A stretch of 64,000 nucleotides of DNA, from assembly GCA_026004495.1 (NCBI GenBank), contig BPJG01000001.1, forward strand, positions 432,527 through 496,526. Reading direction: 5' to 3'. Below are positions 4,174 to 58,198 of this stretch, piece after piece (the first letter of the stretch is position 1; each line of letters opens with the position of its first letter). Below the pieces are notes generated by a model. The model searched no databases. It saw only the letters and a program-made list of their open reading frames with translations, and was not told the DNA's origin. The position numbers and the translations under genes are program-made. Source of the DNA: Candidatus Parcubacteria bacterium. GTDB lineage: Bacteria > Patescibacteriota > Minisyncoccia > UBA6257 > HR35.

Positions 4174-7100
4174 ATGTATATTTCAAACCCTGAAGATATA
4201 AAATCAATTTTAATTAGATTATCTTCACCTGATGATATTTTAAAAAATTCAAATGGTGAAGTTGTTAAGCCAGAAACTATTAATTATCGAACAGGTAAAC
4301 CTTATAGAGAAGGACTTTTTTCAGAAATTATTTTTGGCCCTCTTAAAGATTTTGAATGTTCCTGTGGAAAATATAAAGGTCAACAATTTGCTGGCTTAAA
4401 ATGTGATCGTTGCGGAGTTGATGTTGTTCGCTCAAATGTAAGAAGAGAAAGAATGGGACATATTACCTTGGCTACACCTATTTGCCATATATGGTTTTTA
4501 AAAATATATCCCTATCCTATTTCTTTAATTTTAGATATACCCAATTTTCAATTAGAAAAAGTTATCTATTATTCAGCCTATATCATAACTAAAGTTAATG
4601 AAGATGAAAAAAATAAGTTATTAAAAAATATTGAAGCTGAGTACAAAGAGAAAATTAAAGATGCTAATAAGAATAAGAAAGAAATTAAGGAAATATTTGA
4701 GAAGATAAAAGAAGAAATAAATAATATAAAGGTTAAAAGAGTTATTTCAGATGTAGAATATTATATTTATTCTAAAAAGTACCCTAATATTTTTGAAGTA
4801 GGAATGGGTGCTGATGTTATTAGAAGATTCTTGGAGGATTTAGATTTAGAAGAGGAATATAAACGAACATTAGAAAACTTTAAAAAAGCTAAAAATATTG
4901 AAAAAAAGAGAATATCTCTTAAACTTAAAATTTTAAAATCTTTTATTAAGAATAACATCAGGCCGGAATGGATGATGTTAACAATTCTTCCAGTTATTCC
5001 TGCAGACTTAAGACCTATCGTTACTTTAGAGGGTGGCAAATTGGTTTCTTCTGACTTAAATGATTTGTATCGTCGAATAATAAATAGAAATAATAGACTT
5101 AAGAGGTTATATGAAATAAAGGCACCAGAAATAATTATTCGTAATGAAAAAAGAATGCTTCAGGAAGCAGTCGATGCTTTATTAGATAATTCCCTAAGAA
5201 AAGAAAAATTATCGCTTTCTCAAAGAAAAGTTTTGAAATCTTTAGCAGATATGTTAAGGGGAAAACAAGGAAGATTTAGACAAAATTTACTGGGTAAAAG
5301 AGTTGACTATTCTGGTCGAGGAGTAATTGTGATTGATCCCAATTTAGCAATTGATGAATTTGGTTTACCTAAAAAAATTGCCCTAGAAATTTTCAAGCCT
5401 TTTATAATTTATGAATTATTATCTAAAGATATTGCTGTTACTATAAAACAAGCTATTTATTTAATTGAAAGTGAAGATCCGGAAGCTATTCAAGTTTTAA
5501 ATAATATTATTAAAAATAAATATTGCTTACTAAACAGGGCTCCTACTCTTCACCGATTAGGTATTCAAGCATTTAAGCCTATTTTAGTTGAAGGAATGAC
5601 AATTAAAATCCCACCATTAGTATGTACTGCCTTTAATGCCGACTTTGATGGTGATCAAATGGCGGTATTTTTACCACTTAGCGAAGAAGCTCAAAAAGAG
5701 GCAGAAGAATTAATTTTAGCTTCAAAAAATAATCTTAAACCAGGGGTTGGAGAAATTATTACTAATCCAACTAAAGATATTATTTTAGGTATTTACTACT
5801 TAACTCAATTATTGCCTAATAAGAAAGGTGAAGGTACAATTGTTTATAACGAAAGGGAAGCTAAGTACTTATATTTTAATAATTTAATAGATCTTCAGGC
5901 AGAAATAATTGTTAAAATGTGTAAAAATGAATCAAATATTAAAACTACTGTTGGAAGATTAATTTTTAATGAAATTTTACCAGAAGATTATCCCTTTATT
6001 AATCAAGTTTTAACAAAAAAGGTTTTGAGTAATATAATAGAAGACATTTATGATAAATATGGTAACAATAAAATCGTTGTTTTATTAGAGAATATAAAGA
6101 AATTAGGATTTTACTATGCTACTTATTCAGGTATTTCATGGTCATACGATGATTTAAAAATTAATTCTAATAAATATGAAATTATTAAAAAAAGTTACGA
6201 TAGAGAAAAAGAAATAATTGAAGCTTATGAATCAGGATTGCTAAATAATGAAGAAAAAAAATCAAGAATAATTAGTTTATGGCTTGAAACATCTAATCAA
6301 ATAAATAATGATTTAAGAAAATTTTTAAATGATGAAAATAACCCCAAAAGAATGATTGATTCGGGAGCAAGGGGATCTTATACTCAATTAGGTCAGATGG
6401 CGGGAATGAAAGGATTGGTAGAAAATCCTAAGGGAGAAATTATTGATCTTCCTATCATTCATTCTTATAAAGAAGGTTTGTCACCCCTTGAATATTTTAT
6501 TAGTACTCACGGAGCTCGAAAAGGTGCCTCTGATACTGCTCTTAAAACAGCTAGGGCAGGTTATCTTACAAGAAGAATGGTAGATGTTGCCCATGATTTA
6601 ATTACTATTGAAGAAGATTGTGGCGATGAAGAAGGTATTGTTTTAACCAAAGAAGAAGCAGAAGAAGTAGGAGAAACTTTAGCTACCAGAATATTCTCTC
6701 GTGTTTCATTGGAAACTATTTTTGATAAAGATGGGAATGTAATAATTAATAAGGGAGATTATATTGATAGAAAATTATCTGAATTAATTGCTAAAAATGT
6801 AGATAAGATTATAGTGAGATCACCATTTACTTGTAAATCTTTGTTTGGTATTTGTAGTAAATGCTATGGTTTTGATTTAGCCTATAATAAACCTGTTAAA
6901 TTAGGAACTCCAGTAGGAATTATAGCAGCTCAATCAATAGGTGAACCAGCTACCCAGCTGACAATGAGAACCTTTCATGTTGGTGGAGTAGCTGGAGCCG
7001 GTGATATAACTCAAGGAGTGCCCAGAGCTGAAGAAATTTTAGAAGCAAGAAAACCTAAAAATTATAGTGTTCTTTCACCTATTAATGGTAAAATAGTTGG

Positions 7101-11180: not shown

Positions 11181-11921
11181 TTATTTAGTTCTAAAGCAGA
11201 TAGTTAATCCCTCATCATCACCAGTGCAATTTCCTAAGCAAATATCAATTCTTCTACTCATTGAATTATCGGGATCTCCAAAACAATTAGTAGGATTTCT
11301 GTAAAAACCTACATTTTGATAGACTTGAAAATTACCAGTTCTTGTAGCACCTGGTGGTTGTGTATTATCTTTATATACTCCTGTTTTACCTAAACAAGTT
11401 GGATTATTATTCCAGCCCAACTCTTCACAAGAATAAATTGCTATTAAATCTCCTATGTCGGCATATAATCTACTTAATGTAAATTGACCTTCGAAGGGAA
11501 TACTATTTTGTCTTCCTTCATCAAATATAACTCTTTCACTTTTAGGGTCAAATAGTATTCGTGAATATTCATAATATGAATCTAATAGACTTATAGCAAT
11601 TAAATTTGTTTTGGTTCCAAAATTTAATATTCTAAAAATGTTTTTAGTTATAGTAGCTAAGTAATTTCCAGTAGGTTTAAATTCTATCATAGGTAAACCA
11701 AATGAACTATTATTACTACAAGAATAATTACCATAACAATCATTAGTATAATTTGAAAGACCAATAATTAATTCACGTTCATAACCAGGTGTAGAGGTTA
11801 AATTGTAATAAAATTTAAAACCACGATTATCTGTTTTAAAAACAGTTATTCTATTTTGAGCCAAAACAAAGCTTCCTACTATAATTAAAATAAATAATAA
11901 TATTCTAAATATTTTTATCAT
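11181..11921 (-). CDS. Secreted Cys-rich protein, paralog 3 of a tandem triplet (unknown family)
   Basis: N-terminal signal/TM segment 'ILLFILIIVGSFVLAQN'. The mature N-terminus 'VFKTDNRGFKFYYNL' is shared with the two upstream paralogs. The C-terminal Cys-rich block ends in the conserved 'GLTICFRTK'. Confidence 0.7.
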   Translation of the reverse strand: MIKIFRILLFILIIVGSFVLAQNRITVFKTDNRGFKFYYNLTSTPGYERELIIGLSNYTNDCYGNYSCSNNSSFGLPMIEFKPTGNYLATITKNIFRILNFGTKTNLIAISLLDSYYEYSRILFDPKSERVIFDEGRQNSIPFEGQFTLSRLYADIGDLIAIYSCEELGWNNNPTCLGKTGVYKDNTQPPGATRTGNFQVYQNVGFYRNPTNCFGDPDNSMSRRIDICLGNCTGDDEGLTICFRTK

Positions 11922-15513: not shown

Positions 15514-16488
15514 CTAATTTAATCCCAATTTACTCATAATTAAATTTAAGTTATTGTTTGCTATTTTGTTTAATTTAATAGCTGATTGTTTAAAAATTTT
15601 ATTTATTTCTTGATTGGTGATCTTATTTTTTGCTAGTCTAGCTTTTTTAAAATAACTCATAAAAGAATTATAAATTTCTAATTTAAATTCATAATAGCCT
15701 TTATTTTTAAAATTATTTTCAATTTCAGAATAAGTCTTTTTTGTTAAATATTTATAAATAGTCATCAAATTGCTAATACCTGGCTTATGTGAGGGATCGA
15801 ATTTTACTTCGTTATCTGAATCAGTTATTGCTTTTAGTATTTTTTGTTTTATTTCTTTTTCGGGCGCAAAAATTTCTAAACAACCTTCTGGTTCTGATTT
15901 GGACATCTTTTTAGATGGATTTATTAAGCTCATTATTTTAGCAGTTTCATTGGGAATATAAGCTTTGGGTATTTTAAGTTTGGTATTAAATCTTTTATTA
16001 AACTTTCTGACTAATTCTCGGCATAATTCAAGATGTTGTTTTTGATCTTCGCCAACGGGGACTAAATCAACATTATAAATAAGAATATCTGCTGACATTA
16101 ATACAGGATAAAGCAAAATTCCAGATCCTACTCCAGTTTTTTTATACTTTTCGCTTTGTTCCTTAAATTCATGCATTCTCATCAGTTCGCCGACAGAAGC
16201 TACAGTTGATAAAAACCAAAATAAATAAAGATGGGCAGGAATATCAGATTGTTTAAAAATAATTGTTTTTTTAGGATTAATACCTAAGGCTATTAATGAT
16301 TTAACAATATCATAGGTTAAGAAGCTTAATTCTCTGGTTGAATAAGGAACTGTTTGAGCATGAAGATTGGCAATCATTAATAAAACCTGATATCTATTTT
16401 GCATTTCAATAAGTTCTCTAATGACCGAGAGATAATTACCTAAATGTAGCTTACCAGTTGGTTTAATTCCTGTTAGTATTCTTTTCAT
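15514..16488 (-). CDS. trpS: Tryptophan--tRNA ligase
   Basis: 'ILTGIKPTGKLHLGNYLS' (HIGH-type) and 'KMSKSEPEG' (KMSKS). Length 324 aa. Confidence 0.93.
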   Translation of the reverse strand: MKRILTGIKPTGKLHLGNYLSVIRELIEMQNRYQVLLMIANLHAQTVPYSTRELSFLTYDIVKSLIALGINPKKTIIFKQSDIPAHLYLFWFLSTVASVGELMRMHEFKEQSEKYKKTGVGSGILLYPVLMSADILIYNVDLVPVGEDQKQHLELCRELVRKFNKRFNTKLKIPKAYIPNETAKIMSLINPSKKMSKSEPEGCLEIFAPEKEIKQKILKAITDSDNEVKFDPSHKPGISNLMTIYKYLTKKTYSEIENNFKNKGYYEFKLEIYNSFMSYFKKARLAKNKITNQEINKIFKQSAIKLNKIANNNLNLIMSKLGLN

Positions 16489-17941
16489 TTTTAATTAATC
16501 TTTTAACCAATAAATTAAATTTTTTACCTCGATCAAATTCATTTTTAAATTTTTCGAAAGAAGATCCTGCTGGAGAAAACAAAATTATATTATGTTTTTT
16601 ATTCTCTTTGGTTAATTCTAAGGCTTTATTAAGGCAATCTCTTAAATCATCAAAAATATTATATTTATCTAAATTATAATTTATTTTATTTAATTCTTTA
16701 ATAATTTTTTGAGAAGCAGTTCCACTTAAAATAATTAAGTTTTGTGGCTCAACTTTTTGCTTAATTGACTTAGCTAATTCTTGAAAATTTAGATTTTTAT
16801 CTTTCCCACCCACTATAAGAATTAAATTATGATTAGCCTGATGAAATCTTTTTATGGCTTCGATTGTGGCTTGAGGAGTAGTGCTAGCCGAATCGTTGAT
16901 AATACTTAAATTATTCCCTTGATAGATAATTTGTTGCCTAAATTCAGGTAGATTTAATTTATTTAAATATTTTTCTAACAAACTCCAGTTTATTTTTATA
17001 TTTTTTTCATAACTATATAAGTAAAGGGCAAGAATTGAATTTAGTAAATTATAGAGATTATGAACACCTAGGTATTTTAGTTTTTTATTAGGCGTTAATT
17101 TAATTAATTGACTTTTATGCTTAATAATTATTTTATCTTTTTGGTAAAAAATACCGTTTAAATTATTACCAATAATTTTTTGAGATACATAAAATGTTTG
17201 ACTTTGAGGTTTAAATTTAAGAAAAAATTTAGTCCAGTCGTTATCATAATTTAAAATCAGAAAATCTTTTTTTGTTTGATTTAAAAAAATTTTTGCTTTA
17301 ATTGAAGCATATTCTTCCATGGTAGCATATCTATCAAGATGATCTTCGTAAAGATTTGTTATAATAGAGATTTTGGGTGCTTTTAATTTTTTTTTATAAA
17401 ATTCCAATTGAAATGAAGATATTTCTAAGACAAATAAATTACTTGGTTCGTCTATCAATTTTAATAAACCCCTTGTTGGCTGATTACCACCTAAAACAAT
17501 GTTTTTATCGAAAAATTTTTTAAATAATTGATATGTTAAAAATGAGGTAGTAGTTTTACCTCTTGTTCCAGTTATGGCAATAATATCAGTATTAACTAAT
17601 TTGAAAAATAAATAACAATCATTAATAATAATTTTGTTTTTTTTCTTAGCACATTTAATGAAATTATTTTTATAACTAATAGCTGGATTTACAACAATTA
17701 TTTCTGCCCAATCAAAATCTTCGTAATTATGACTTCCAAGGGTATATTTAATTTTGTGAGGATATTTATATTTTTCTTTTAAGCGATTTATTATTTTAAT
17801 TTGATTTTTTAATTCATCTATTTTTTTTAAATCAGTAATTCTTATTTTAGATTTGTTTTTAATAAAAAATTCTACATTTGCTAATCCGCCGCCTAAAATT
17901 CCTAAGCCAAAAATTAAGACGTTCTTATTTTTTAATACCAT
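16463..17941 (-). CDS. murD: UDP-N-acetylmuramoylalanine--D-glutamate ligase-like Mur ligase
   Basis: N-terminal Rossmann 'VLIFGLGILGGGLA'; Mur ligase central P-loop 'IAITGTRGKTTTSFL'; 'DSASTTPQA' C-domain block. Confidence 0.8.
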   Translation of the reverse strand: MVLKNKNVLIFGLGILGGGLANVEFFIKNKSKIRITDLKKIDELKNQIKIINRLKEKYKYPHKIKYTLGSHNYEDFDWAEIIVVNPAISYKNNFIKCAKKKNKIIINDCYLFFKLVNTDIIAITGTRGKTTTSFLTYQLFKKFFDKNIVLGGNQPTRGLLKLIDEPSNLFVLEISSFQLEFYKKKLKAPKISIITNLYEDHLDRYATMEEYASIKAKIFLNQTKKDFLILNYDNDWTKFFLKFKPQSQTFYVSQKIIGNNLNGIFYQKDKIIIKHKSQLIKLTPNKKLKYLGVHNLYNLLNSILALYLYSYEKNIKINWSLLEKYLNKLNLPEFRQQIIYQGNNLSIINDSASTTPQATIEAIKRFHQANHNLILIVGGKDKNLNFQELAKSIKQKVEPQNLIILSGTASQKIIKELNKINYNLDKYNIFDDLRDCLNKALELTKENKKHNIILFSPAGSSFEKFKNEFDRGKKFNLLVKRLIKNEKNTNRN

Positions 17942-30741: not shown

Positions 30742-31308
30742 ATGGCTGGGATAAAAAATGACAGATGGATAAAATATATGGCTAGAAAGCATAAAATTAT
30801 TGAGCCTTTTGTTGAAAAGCTGGTTAAAAAAGGAAAGGTTTCTTATGGTCTTTCGAGTTATGGTTATGATATGAGAGTTGCTGATGAGTTTTATATTTTT
30901 CACAATGCTTATCCAACTGAAATTATTGATCCTAAAAATGCTAAAGAAAATTATTTTATTAAACATAAAGGTAAATTTTGTATAATTCCTCCTAATTCAT
31001 TTGTTTTAGCTCGTTCTTTAGAATATTTTCGTATTCCCAGAAATGTTATAGCAATTGTTTTAGGTAAATCAACCTATGCTCGTTGCGGAATTATTGTTAA
31101 TGTAACTCCCTTAGAAAGTGAATGGCAGGGCTATGTAACGATAGAAATTTCTAACACAACACCATTGCCAGCAAAAATTTATGCTAATGAAGGGATTGCT
31201 CAAGTTATTTTTTTAGAAGCTGATGAACCTTGTAAAATTTCTTATGCTGACCGTAATGGTAAATATCAAGGACAAAAGGGAATTGTTTTACCAAAAATTG
31301 ATAAATGA
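30742..31308 (+). CDS. dcd: dCTP deaminase
   Basis: 'NDRWI...IIEPF' N-terminus; '[33 protein letters not shown]' catalytic block. TTG start; ends with TGA inside an ATGA overlap with the next ORF. Confidence 0.85.
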
Positions 31309-32255: not shown

Positions 32256-33974
32256 ATGTCAAAATATATCTTTATTTGTGGTGGGGTAATGTCAGGAGTA
32301 GGTAAGGGTATTGCTACTTCTTCAATTGCAAAAATTTTATCTTGGTATGGTTATAAGGTAACTTGTTTTAAGATTGATCCTTATGTCAACGTTGATGCTG
32401 GAACAATGAATCCTTTAGAACATGGGGAAGTTTTTGTTTTGAAAGATGGAACTGAATGTGATCAAGATATGGGGCATTATGAAAGATTTTTAAATCAAGA
32501 ATTGACAAAAGTAAATTATATGACAACTGGTAGTATTTATCTTTCACTAATTCAAAAAGAAAGAAGTTTATTTTTTAATGGCAAATGTGTTGAAGTTGTT
32601 CCTCATGTTCCCTTGGAAGTGATTGACAAAATTAATCAGGCTAAAAAATTAACTAAAGCTGAAATTGTTATTACTGAAATTGGCGGTACTGTAGGTGAAT
32701 ATCAAAATTTATTATTTTTAGAAGCAGTAAGAATTTTAAAGCTTAAACAGCCAAAAGATGTTATTTTAGTTTTAGTTAGTTATTTACCCTATCAAGGAGA
32801 GGGAATGGAAATTAAGACAAAACCAACGCAATATGCTATTCGAGCTTTAAATTCTGCTGGTCTTCAACCTGACTTTGTTTTAGCTCGAGCTCTATTTCCT
32901 TTAGATGATAAAAGAAAAGAAAAAATTTCTTTTAATTGTGGTATAGATAAAGAAAATATAATTTCTGCGCCAGATGAAAAAATAATCTATAAAATTCCTT
33001 TGAATTTTGAAAAAGAAAAAATAGGAGAAAAAATATTGAGGTTATTTAATTTAAAATCAAAAAGTAAAAAATCAAAAGATTTTTTGAAATGGCAGAAAGA
33101 ATTAAATAAAATAAAAAAAATAGATCAAGAAATTAAAATAGGTATTGTTGGCAAATACTTCAAAACAGGTGATTTTATTTTGGCTGATGTTTATATTTCA
33201 GTTATTGAAGCGATTAAACATGCAAGTTGGTTTTTGGGTTATCAGCCAAAAATTGTTTGGTTAAATTCAGAAGAATATGAAGTAGATAAAAAAAGAGTAG
33301 AGGAATTAAAAAATTATCATGGAATTGTTATTCCTGGTGGTTTTGGCTCTCGTGGTGTTGAGGGAAAAATTTTAGCGATTAAATATTGTCGGGAAAATAA
33401 AATCCCTTTATTTGGTTTATGTTATGGTCTTCAACTTATGATTGTTGAATTTGCCAGGAATGTTTGTGGTTTGAAAAATGCTCAAACAACTGAAGTAAAT
33501 CCTAAAGCAAAAAACGCGGTAATTGATATTTTAAAAGAGCAAAAGAAATTATTAAAAGAAAAACTTTATGGTGGAACAATGAGATTGGGTGATTGGGAAT
33601 GTGAAATAAAAAGAGGAACAATTGCTTGGAGAGCTTACACAGAACTTAGCAGAACTGACGCAGAATTTAGCAGAAGATATCAAAAAAATGTTTCTTTTAG
33701 TTCTACGTTTGGTCAGCCTTTTCCGCGTGTTTTGAAAGTTGTAGAAAGACACAGACATCGTTATGAAGTTAATCCTAAATATCATAAAATTTTACAAAAG
33801 AATGGTTTTGTTTTTTCGGGTACATCGCAAAATGGTTTATTGGTTGAAATTGGAGAATTGTCACAAAATATTCATCCTTTCTTTTTGGGAACTCAATTTC
33901 ATCCAGAATTGAAATCAAAATTTTTACATCCCCATCCATTGTTTCTTGAATTTATTAAGCAGAGTACAAAATAA
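32256..33974 (+). CDS. pyrG: CTP synthase carrying a lineage-specific in-frame insert
   Basis: 'YIFICGGVMSGVGKGIATSSIAKIL' P-loop; GATase 'GLCYGLQLMIVEFA' (catalytic Cys); 'VERHRHRYEVN'. A GC-richer repetitive segment at 33640-33728 lengthens the region between 'MRLG' and 'ERHRHRYEVN'. Confidence 0.95.
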   Translation: MSKYIFICGGVMSGVGKGIATSSIAKILSWYGYKVTCFKIDPYVNVDAGTMNPLEHGEVFVLKDGTECDQDMGHYERFLNQELTKVNYMTTGSIYLSLIQKERSLFFNGKCVEVVPHVPLEVIDKINQAKKLTKAEIVITEIGGTVGEYQNLLFLEAVRILKLKQPKDVILVLVSYLPYQGEGMEIKTKPTQYAIRALNSAGLQPDFVLARALFPLDDKRKEKISFNCGIDKENIISAPDEKIIYKIPLNFEKEKIGEKILRLFNLKSKSKKSKDFLKWQKELNKIKKIDQEIKIGIVGKYFKTGDFILADVYISVIEAIKHASWFLGYQPKIVWLNSEEYEVDKKRVEELKNYHGIVIPGGFGSRGVEGKILAIKYCRENKIPLFGLCYGLQLMIVEFARNVCGLKNAQTTEVNPKAKNAVIDILKEQKKLLKEKLYGGTMRLGDWECEIKRGTIAWRAYTELSRTDAEFSRRYQKNVSFSSTFGQPFPRVLKVVERHRHRYEVNPKYHKILQKNGFVFSGTSQNGLLVEIGELSQNIHPFFLGTQFHPELKSKFLHPHPLFLEFIKQSTK

Positions 33975-35250: not shown

Positions 35251-36207
35251 ATGTATTTAATAGGAGATGTGGGTGGTACAAAAACAAGGCTAACAATTAT
35301 TGATAAGATATATATTAATTCAAATCAATCATATAGATATCTTAAACAAAAGACAAAGTTTTTTAACACCCCTCAAAAATACGAAGATTTTTTAGGATTA
35401 ATTTTTAAATTTCTTAAGAAATTGAGAAAAAGAATTGACAAAGTTTGCTTTGGATTTGCCGGTAATTTCGATTTAGATAAAGAAAAATTAATCTACTCTC
35501 CAAATTTAAAAGATTATATTGATAGAGATTTAAAGAAAGATTTAGAGAGGATTTTACATTCGTGTCAATCCGTGGTTTTAGAAAATGATGCTGCCTTAGC
35601 TGGTTTAGGTGAAGCATATTATGGAGCAGGAAAAAATTTTAATGTTTTTGGTTATATTACTTTAGGAACAGGAGTTGGAGGAGTTAAAATTATAAAACGC
35701 GAACTAATGCAAACAGGACGCGAACAGATGCAAACTAAATTTTTTATTGATGATAATGTTTTTGGTTTTGAGCCAGGACATTCATTTATTTTGATATGCG
35801 GAATAAACGGAAGCGGACACAGAATGAACGGAATAAACGGAAAAGATGCTTCCGCAAATTCCGTTAAGTCTGTGTTAAGTCCGTTATATCAGATAGAAGT
35901 TGAAGAGATTATTGGCGGTAAAAGTTTGGAAAAGATTTTTAAGAAAAAACCAGAAAAAATAAAAAATAAAAAATTATTGGATGATATGAGTAAAATTTTA
36001 GCAATATTTTTAATAAATGTTTCAATTTTTTGGTCTGTTGATAAAATTATTTTAGGCGGAGGATTAACAAAAAGTCTAAATTTTAAAAAATTAAATTTTT
36101 ATGTTAATGAATTTCATCCTTTACCAATTAAAATTAAAATAATAAAATCAAAATTAGGAGAATTCGCAGGTTTGTTTGGAGGATTAAATTATATAAAAAA
36201 TTTTTAA
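35251..36207 (+). CDS. glk: Glucokinase (Glk family) carrying a GC-rich in-frame insert
   Basis: 'MYLIGDVGGTKTRL' (compare E. coli Glk 'LVGDVGGTNARFA'); 'LGTGVGG'; 'GFEPGHSF'; 'IILGGGL'. The segment 35696-35890 contains direct repeats and an imperfect palindrome. Confidence 0.8.
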   Translation: MYLIGDVGGTKTRLTIIDKIYINSNQSYRYLKQKTKFFNTPQKYEDFLGLIFKFLKKLRKRIDKVCFGFAGNFDLDKEKLIYSPNLKDYIDRDLKKDLERILHSCQSVVLENDAALAGLGEAYYGAGKNFNVFGYITLGTGVGGVKIIKRELMQTGREQMQTKFFIDDNVFGFEPGHSFILICGINGSGHRMNGINGKDASANSVKSVLSPLYQIEVEEIIGGKSLEKIFKKKPEKIKNKKLLDDMSKILAIFLINVSIFWSVDKIILGGGLTKSLNFKKLNFYVNEFHPLPIKIKIIKSKLGEFAGLFGGLNYIKNF

Positions 36208-58126: not shown

Positions 58127-58198
58127 GGGTACGTAGCTCAGTGGTAGAGCGCGTCTCTGATAAAGACGAGGTCGTAGGTTCGATCCCTACCGTACCCA
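58127..58198 (+). tRNA. tRNA-Ile (anticodon GAT)
   Basis: Acceptor GGGTACG pairs with CGTACCC. D-arm GCTC/GAGC. Anticodon stem CGTCT/AGACG with loop CTGATAA. T-arm GTAGG-TTCGATC-CCTAC. Discriminator A. CCA is not encoded. Confidence 0.85.

Follow-up and report, generated by a model that had tools for sequence, protein, structure and literature searches.

We analysed a 64,000-nucleotide window of a Candidatus Parcubacteria genome (GenBank assembly GCA_026004495.1, contig BPJG01000001.1, positions 432,527 to 496,526 of the forward strand; coordinates below are those of the window unless another locus is named), and in particular a repetitive segment within its pyrG gene, which encodes CTP synthase. 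The product has the Pfam domains CTP_synth_N (residues 3-266) and GATase (residues 309-568), matches solved CTP synthases in the PDB with E values down to 5.5e-149 (phmmer), and gives an AlphaFold2 (AF2) model with a predicted template-modelling score (pTM) of 0.85 and TM-scores of 0.79-0.82 against 3nva, 1vco and 5tkv. Its nearest proteins come from metagenome-assembled genomes (MAGs) labelled ‘Candidatus Parcubacteria bacterium’ (85% and 77% identity) and from ‘bacterium HR35’ (82%). The locus nearest to the window is on contig BPJI01000001 of ‘Ca. Parcubacteria bacterium KatS3mg096’ (hereafter L001).

A repetitive insert in the CTP synthase gene

The pyrG segment is a genuine in-frame insertion, missing from close orthologues. 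The conserved GGTMRLG and ERHRHRYE blocks are 51 residues apart in the window protein and 22 residues apart in ~95 of the 120 best homologues (67-85% identity), and a MAFFT alignment of 121 PyrG sequences, including that of the window, places 29 extra codons after Y461, with boundaries uncertain by 1-2 codons (Table 1). All solved CTP synthases lack the segment as well: the gap falls between residues 456 and 460 of 3nva and between 461 and 464 of 1vco, and HMMER alignments stop at query residue 462 to pick up again at 494/495. The original prediction, made from the DNA letters, was thus right that extra codons separate the conserved blocks but too low, at about 20, in its estimate of their number. 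The insert is free of stop codons and the conserved C-terminal blocks downstream remain in the same frame, as had been expected. Its GC content (36.8%) is higher than that of pyrG (29.4%) and of the window (25.2%), but the GC richness is less conspicuous than claimed, since among 87-nt windows the insert ranks at the 93rd percentile for the 64 kb and at the 90th within pyrG, where an equally GC-rich stretch is present elsewhere.

In the AF2 model, secondary structure assignment with DSSP puts the insert between helix 456-467 and strand 492-499, from which the glutaminase domain continues into its conserved ERHRHRYE block. This agrees with the suggestion that the segment might map to a loop of the GATase domain, here a predicted one. 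The predicted local distance difference test (pLDDT) scores over residues 461-490 are 65/56/54, with 92 and 83 in the flanks, and a helical extension is predicted over residues 456-476.

Internally, a forward arm is followed by an A-rich spacer and then by an inverted arm that has degenerated. The forward-arm units are of the type CAGAAYT..., and CAGAA starts at 33640, 33650, 33661 and 33671, a spacing of 10/11/10 nt. Three consecutive CAGAA pentamers at 10-11-nt spacing are matched twice, with none expected from 100 shuffles, and Tandem Repeats Finder reports a period of 10 with 3.5 copies (33640-33675). The alternating 10/11-nt period makes a double unit of 21 nt, or seven codons, that reads ..TELS RTDAEFS R..; this is the true period, positions 33630-33650 being 81% identical to 33651-33671. 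The recurring pentamers of the original prediction are confirmed. The partially complementary arm is so in fragments but no full arm is left: AGTTCTAC (33699-33706) reverse-complements GTAGAACT, TCCGCGT (33722-33728) does the same for ACGCGGA, and the complementary pieces that remain are GCAGAACT/AGTTCTAC and ACGCGGA-like/TCCGCGT.

Table 1. Features of the pyrG insert and of the neighbouring ROK/glucokinase gene
Feature	Coordinates	Strand	Description
pyrG (CTP synthase)	32256..33974	+	572-aa open reading frame (ORF); host gene of the insert
In-frame insert	33639..33725	+	TELSRTDAEFSRRYQKNVSFSSTFGQPFP; 87 nt = 29 codons, residues 462-490
Forward arm	33640..33676	+	3.5 tandem units: CAGAACTTAG / CAGAACTGACG / CAGAATTTAG / CAGAAG
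A-rich spacer	33677..33690	+	ATATCAAAAAAATG; hairpin-loop position, read from the sequence
Degenerate inverted arm	33691..33728	+	TTTCTTTTAGTTCTACGTTTGGTCAGCCTTTTCCGCGT; short complementary pieces only
Antisense ORF	33552..33785	-	77 aa, reads SSAKFCVSSAKFCVSS
ROK/glucokinase gene	35251..36207		Carries arrays 1 and 2
ROK array 1	35697..35738	+	Two direct 21-nt units ACGCGAACnnATGCAAACnnn; peptide RELMQTG/REQMQTK; 14-codon insert
ROK array 2	35797..35890	+	Near-perfect hairpin of CGGAAT/ACGGAA units and their inverse; ~23 extra codons (CGINGSGHRMNGINGKDASANSV...)

Several other accounts of the segment were rejected. It is too short for an intein; an intron or translational bypass is contradicted by the inserts seen in called genes, all of which keep the frame and have no stops; and an assembly artefact is contradicted by the presence of homologous inserts in independent assemblies. 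The antisense repeat peptide that had been pointed out is real, but the antisense ORF that contains it has no Pfam match, and we regard it as a by-product of the stop-free repeat and not as a gene.

Related arrays in the lineage

The L001 pyrG gene has an orthologous copy, inserted at the same codon; over 68 nt the two are 89.7% identical, and the L001 copy has one 21-nt unit more than that of the window (RTDTELS twice). The spacer is kept there as GATATCAAAAAAATATTTCT, and the inverted arm is better preserved (GTTAGTTCTGC...CCACGCGTC; fold z -2.45). PyrG of bacterium HR35 (locus L002) has an empty site with the canonical AYKTTKVL. The insert predates the split from KatS3mg096 and was present in the common ancestor, since when there has been slippage by 21 nt and most of the dyad symmetry has been lost.

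Between the window and L001, identities over the insert are 0.67 for amino acids, 0.82 for nucleotides and 0.80 for third positions, compared with 0.87, 0.87 and 0.76 over the remainder of pyrG. All codon positions of the insert thus appear to diverge at approximately the synonymous rate, which fits a peptide under little constraint, and the sequence evolution of this copy seems to be roughly neutral. Such a rate and the loss of dyad symmetry both suggest a passenger in decay, and we infer that the insert has no role in CTP synthase.

Unit strings of the pyrG insert recur in other genes of related genomes. One is on the opposite strand of the L001 ROK gene (82.5% over 40 nt, E 1e-4) and another, GAACTGACGCAGAA-TTAGCAGAA, is in the TGT gene of locus L245 (96% over 24 nt, E 4e-4; both E values refer to a 190-kb database). 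Judged by these sequence matches, the pyrG insert belongs to a dispersed family of unit arrays. A contig scan with two CAGAACT and one CAGAA returned mostly chance matches in unrelated phyla, and the relevant ones among the matches listed were L026, which is the L001 locus, and L018. The latter, from Patescibacteria group bacterium MAG117, has another palindromic array type at 480-700, with units CTGCAGAACT and CTGCAGAGGTTAGACCTCTGCAG.

A clearer example than the pyrG segment lies ~2 kb downstream, in the window’s ROK/glucokinase gene. Both of its arrays are in frame and both are missing from the L001 and L002 orthologues. Array 2 has an RNA minimum free energy (MFE) of -39.7 kcal/mol (z -6.53, 0/200 shuffles as stable) and forms the most stable 100-nt fold across the 64-kb window. 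Other low-MFE windows (e.g. 13591, 26061, 30391, 29801) look by eye like ordinary coding sequence and have no unit structure, and a generic inverted-repeat scan of the window returned mostly AT-rich noise.

Arrays are numerous at the related loci. In the 21.7 kb of L001 there are at least 9, ~4 of them intergenic and 5 intragenic (in the TP_methylase, pyrG, ROK (two) and ArgRS genes), and at least 5 unit types coexist there. Large intergenic arrays of this locus display the complete layout away from coding sequence: the one at 16440-16820 (~380 bp) runs from ~11-12-nt CCGGAT units into inverted ATCCGG units, and at 4508-4682 a GTGCGACGT-type palindrome lies beside AGCTTC tandem units. Intragenic arrays also occur in the epimerase and TGT genes of L245, the DUF4147 gene of L246, the thymidylate kinase, ArgRS and fructose-bisphosphate (FBP) aldolase genes of L247, and at L248. 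No Rfam family covers the arrays in the six loci tested (E<=0.1), and the sole Rfam match above the gathering score over the window is a tRNA (58127-58198).

Insert turnover at three sites of PyrG

The alignment of 121 sequences has three insertion sites: site 1 in the interdomain linker, after residues ~266-273; site 2, which is that of the window insert, after ~461-465; and site 3 after ~494 (HR35 numbering). Site 1 corresponds to linker residues 264-273 of the AF2 model (DSSP), and we place site 3 in the turn at 525-528. Inserts at different sites have motifs in common (PRINAD.., NPRKSAL, PHKSVP, YPDKNRIINYPD and SGKNPGKIS), which arise when the forward and reverse units are translated. Within one PyrG cluster of <12% core-column divergence, the sites occur empty, filled singly (1, 2 or 3), in pairs (1+2, 2+3 and 1+3) and all three together. 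That every combination is found in one cluster indicates fast gain and loss.

Site-2 arrays of other lineages, among them near-perfect hairpins, illustrate the form of an intact element and are built from different units. In L004, ACGCGGATnn(n) occurs six times, giving RINAD repeats, together with an inverted GAATCCGCGT. L247 has ACCCGGAT/ACCGGAT units and inverted ATCCGGT (-43.8 kcal/mol, z -5.6), L249 has the same layout with CCGAAT/ATTCGG (-47.2 kcal/mol, z -6.4), and L251 has ACGCGGAT/ACGCAGAT units (-64.8 kcal/mol, z -9.4). The arrays of L247 and L249 are orthologous, with CCGGAT/ATCCGG in one and CCGAAT/ATTCGG in the other, such that all forward units differ by G<->A and all reverse units by C<->T; RNAalifold recognises two A-U<->G-C compensatory pairs at the same unit position. 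These matched changes in both arms imply that the arms are homogenised together. Comparison of L251 with its empty relative L252 shows that the outermost stem overwrites host codons, AWRAY becoming AYRGY (TACCGCGGATA) and NLIL becoming LSVV (TTATCCGTGGTA).

So, is the insert simply a loop that expanded locally by replication slippage, with no relation to a dispersed element? Slippage is evident in the difference of one 21-nt unit between the window and L001, and a unit length that is a multiple of three with a copy number that varies between relatives is what simple tandem repeats have; nor does the window hold another copy, or its own copy a significant fold. However, related genomes have unit strings of 24-40 nt in genes that share no homology (E 1e-4 to 4e-4), the same architecture and motifs are found at three pyrG sites and in >10 other gene families, and the inverted arms of sister arrays are not created by slippage alone. 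As the units are common to other loci, slippage describes how the array changes and not where it came from, and a purely local origin is very improbable.

Concerted change also bears on whether the array is kept for a function, either as a nucleic-acid hairpin (mRNA stabilisation, a gyrase or nucleoid-protein site, a translational pause) or as a heptad-repeat peptide surface for assembly or regulation. Arms of sister arrays stay complementary through such changes, many arrays persist in genomes with very little intergenic space, and RNA- and DNA-level roles have been proposed for repetitive extragenic palindromes (REPs; PMC3733652); the helical extension predicted by AF2 would suit a peptide role. 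Selection for any of these is difficult to reconcile with the patchy presence of the inserts, in every combination among near-identical PyrG, with unit sequences that vary by site and by lineage, or, for the window copy, with its lost dyad symmetry, its low pLDDT and a peptide that changes about as fast as synonymous sites do. Selection for a role at the RNA, DNA or protein level is unlikely for the pyrG copy, though conceivable for the family, and we rate such a function as the least probable of the explanations considered.

Other observations were made at these loci. The site-3 inserts of L247 (about 11660-11760) and L251 are GC-rich hairpins without decamer units (GTCCTGAACC...GGTTCAGGAC and GCCCCGTA...TACGGGGC), so more than one class of hairpin insert occupies the same loops. 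L245 and L246 are from one MAG (GCA_026004515.1; BPJH01000003 and BPJH01000002) in which pyrG occurs in two different versions (P0006 and P0014) with separate site-2 inserts, which suggests a mixed bin or two strains. The dCTP deaminase gene of bacterium HR35 (L002, 1292-3124) encodes 610 aa with a faint LAGLIDADG_3 match and probably carries an intein; the L001 enzyme has 188 aa, and the syntenic position in the window (30742..31308) holds an ORF of 188 aa. An ORF of 44-45 aa directly follows or overlaps the end of pyrG in L001 (11748-11882), where its predicted product looks like a hydrophobic, tail-anchored-like peptide, and also in L246, L249, L250 and L252; the window has no counterpart ORF of at least 25 aa after pyrG.

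Origin of the arrays and comparison with known elements

A metagenome scan for three ACGCGGAT units, 2-4 nt apart, returned at least 120 loci (L125-L244) on contigs with a GC content of 0.26-0.72. Most among the matches listed are on contigs of GC 0.5-0.7, and the arrays inspected are hairpins (GGACGCGGATnnACGCGGAT..loop..ATCCGCGTnnATCCGCGTCC). The hairpin form is GGACGCGGATnn... loop ...ATCCGCGTCC, and in other phyla the arrays end GGACG...CGTCC. The matches listed also include ~20 low-GC contigs (0.26-0.43). On several of these a long ORF reads through the array in frame, either inside a Pfam domain or between domains; the domains concerned are those of RNase HII, Mur ligase, class-I aminoacyl-tRNA synthetase, MnmA, enolase and GatC. 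In an elongation factor G (EF-G) ORF the array precedes the GTPase domain and may precede the true start as well. Arrays of this ACGCGGAT hairpin type thus appear to extend far beyond bacteria of the candidate phyla radiation (CPR). They matched no Rfam family, and no literature name was found for them.

We conclude that the pyrG segment is probably one copy, translated and in slow decay, of a type of short palindromic array that is scattered through the spacers and in-frame loops of this lineage. An intact array would consist of several tandem 10/11-nt units (the 21-nt double unit giving seven codons), then an A-rich loop, then those units again in inverted orientation, and such arrays would sit in spacers and in permissive loops of many housekeeping genes of these Parcubacteria. 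Growth, shrinkage and homogenisation may proceed by slippage combined with hairpin- or template-switch-templated synthesis, and new loci may be seeded by copying from existing arrays, with selection presumably filtering only for the reading frame and for structural tolerance of the loop. The route from locus to locus could be template switching, gene conversion or a transposase.

Several results weigh against this reading. The hairpin anticipated in the original prediction was not borne out by structure prediction: the fold of 33636-33732 is not significant (-16.8 kcal/mol, z -0.28, 75/200 shuffles as stable), and that of 33625-33735 is also at shuffle level (z +0.22). The further copies that it anticipated are present as units in the L001 ROK and L245 TGT genes but not in the 64-kb window, where searches with the exact 37-mer (<=3 mismatches), a 16-mer core, blastn-short and the peptide motif matched the insert itself and A-rich noise; membership of the family therefore rests on the genomes of relatives. 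The junctions of filled and empty alleles, compared by eye in pyrG (window/L001 with L002, L251 with L252, and L249 with L250) and in ROK (window with L001/L002), have no target-site duplication (TSD) and no terminal inverted repeat (TIR) beyond the array itself. Use of the same exact three PyrG sites could reflect a site preference of some insertion machinery and not selection alone, and the suggested neutral passage of the insert derives from a single pairwise comparison and from patchiness. Finally, the coexistence of at least five unit types in one genome, with no TIR, TSD or transposase seen, leaves dispersal without candidate machinery.

Might the arrays be miniature elements of the REP/REPIN (REP doublets forming hairpins) or MITE (miniature inverted-repeat transposable element) type, moved as single-stranded DNA by a Y1/HUH (RAYT/IS200-type, RAYT being a REP-associated tyrosine transposase) or other transposase that is encoded elsewhere in the genome and has a preferred target in pyrG? 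Filled and empty alleles among very close relatives, and the pyrG unit in unrelated genes on both strands, would be expected of such elements; hairpins are typical substrates in REP/RAYT systems (PMC3733652), and the GGACG...CGTCC ends of ACGCGGAT arrays recall the CGTC tag, although CGTC REPs themselves have no known transposase (PMC3733652). The TIRs and TSDs that characterise MITEs were not recognised in three filled-versus-empty comparisons by eye, and neither a RAYT (Y1) nor any other transposase is among the genes listed around seven loci. Also against it are five or more unrelated unit types in one 21.7-kb locus, unit numbers that differ between orthologous arrays, and an outermost stem that overwrites host codons, unlike clean cut-and-paste transposition; we consider this origin unlikely.

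Intragenic REPs with GTAG or CGTC tags (Di Nocera et al. 2013) are mostly extragenic but sometimes lie in ORFs, where they add 20-30 residues and may occur twice per gene (PMC3733652). They resemble the arrays described here in being translated hairpin repeats, and CGTC REPs do so also in lacking a known transposase and in the ...CGTCC ends of ACGCGGAT arrays. However, a REP consists of one stem-loop of 20-40 bp carrying a defined tag, whereas the present arrays are made of tandem decamers, have stems of up to ~380 bp (L001) and include a high intragenic fraction (5/~9 in L001). The window copy has neither such a stem-loop, an imperfect palindrome, nor a GTAG or CGTC tag at its end, and the CGTCC ends seen elsewhere are suggestive at most.

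The resemblance originally drawn was to Rickettsia palindromic elements (RPEs). RPE-1 to RPE-8/10 are short and palindromic, occur many times per genome and often lie in frame in unrelated housekeeping genes of small, reduced genomes, where they are translated as an extra peptide, thought to be in tolerant surface regions (PMC10969869; PMC3733652). The pyrG insert is likewise a repeat inserted in frame in a tolerant loop, with the ORF preserved, and, going by the genomes of relatives, it has a dispersed family in which sister arrays form stable translated hairpins (z -5 to -9). The likeness ends with the window copy, which lacks the stable hairpin, and with architecture and host: RPEs, found in Rickettsia only, follow a consensus of ~100-150 bp and encode conserved peptides specific to each family, whereas the pyrG family consists of 10/11-nt unit arrays, with widely varying units and 21-nt copy-number steps, in a Parcubacteria (CPR) host. 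The insert is perhaps best viewed as an analogue of RPEs, set apart by architecture and host, and membership in that group is very unlikely.

Yeast mitochondrial GC clusters are GC-richer hairpin-forming repeats in an AT-rich compact genome. Hairpin elements are also known from sponge mitochondrial genomes as repetitive hairpin-forming elements (RHEs; PMC2800124), and mitochondrial genes of Nematomorpha have coding palindromes in conserved protein parts, under amino-acid selection (PMC6649704). Common to these and to the arrays is the invasion of AT-rich compact genomes, including coding sequence, by GC-richer hairpins that keep the frame and leave apparently functional proteins; unlike them, the arrays have bacterial hosts and not organelles, and are loop additions that seem about neutral. 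Palindromic amphipathic repeat coding elements (PARCELs) are 25-residue domains that form whole ORFs of unknown function, often of membrane or surface proteins (PMC2996958). Intragenic tandem repeats, DNA dyad symmetry, a variable repeat number and a punctate distribution are shared features, but PARCELs are not short inserts in enzymes and have no apparent sequence relation to the arrays. Our literature searches found analogues only, and no earlier account of such CPR arrays, unit strings or peptides.

Taken alone, the pyrG copy is a decayed remnant of modest importance. A broader and more tentative proposal, which we hold to be possible but rather less probable than not, is that ‘tandem-decamer hairpin arrays’ form an unnamed cross-phylum class that has colonised loops of essential CPR genes and propagates itself without a dedicated transposase, the pyrG insert being one worn copy. 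Each array would have N units of ~10-11 nt (ACGCGGATnn, ACGCAGAAnn, CCGGATnnnn), a loop and N inverted units. CPR and Parcubacteria genomes have almost no spacer DNA, and the arrays would occupy the permissive loops of essential genes, with hairpin-templated slippage or template switching propagating and homogenising them.

Should this wider picture be true, CPR essential enzymes, among them CTP synthase, glucokinase, TGT, ArgRS, RNase HII, Mur ligase and enolase, would be full of translated palindromic arrays with a fast turnover. Annotation and phylogenetics would be affected through inflated protein lengths, broken alignments and spurious antisense ORFs. The three PyrG sites would provide a natural map of insertion-tolerant loops, and the concerted changes of array arms a tractable case of palindrome homogenisation. 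A survey across the tree of life found the highest inverted-repeat density in Ca. Campbellbacteria, Gracilibacteria and Kaiserbacteria (bioRxiv 10.1101/2024.09.29.615628), and self-propagating decamer arrays would help to explain this top position of CPR bacteria. More generally, the arrays would show how selfish or structural DNA may persist in genomes with almost no intergenic space.

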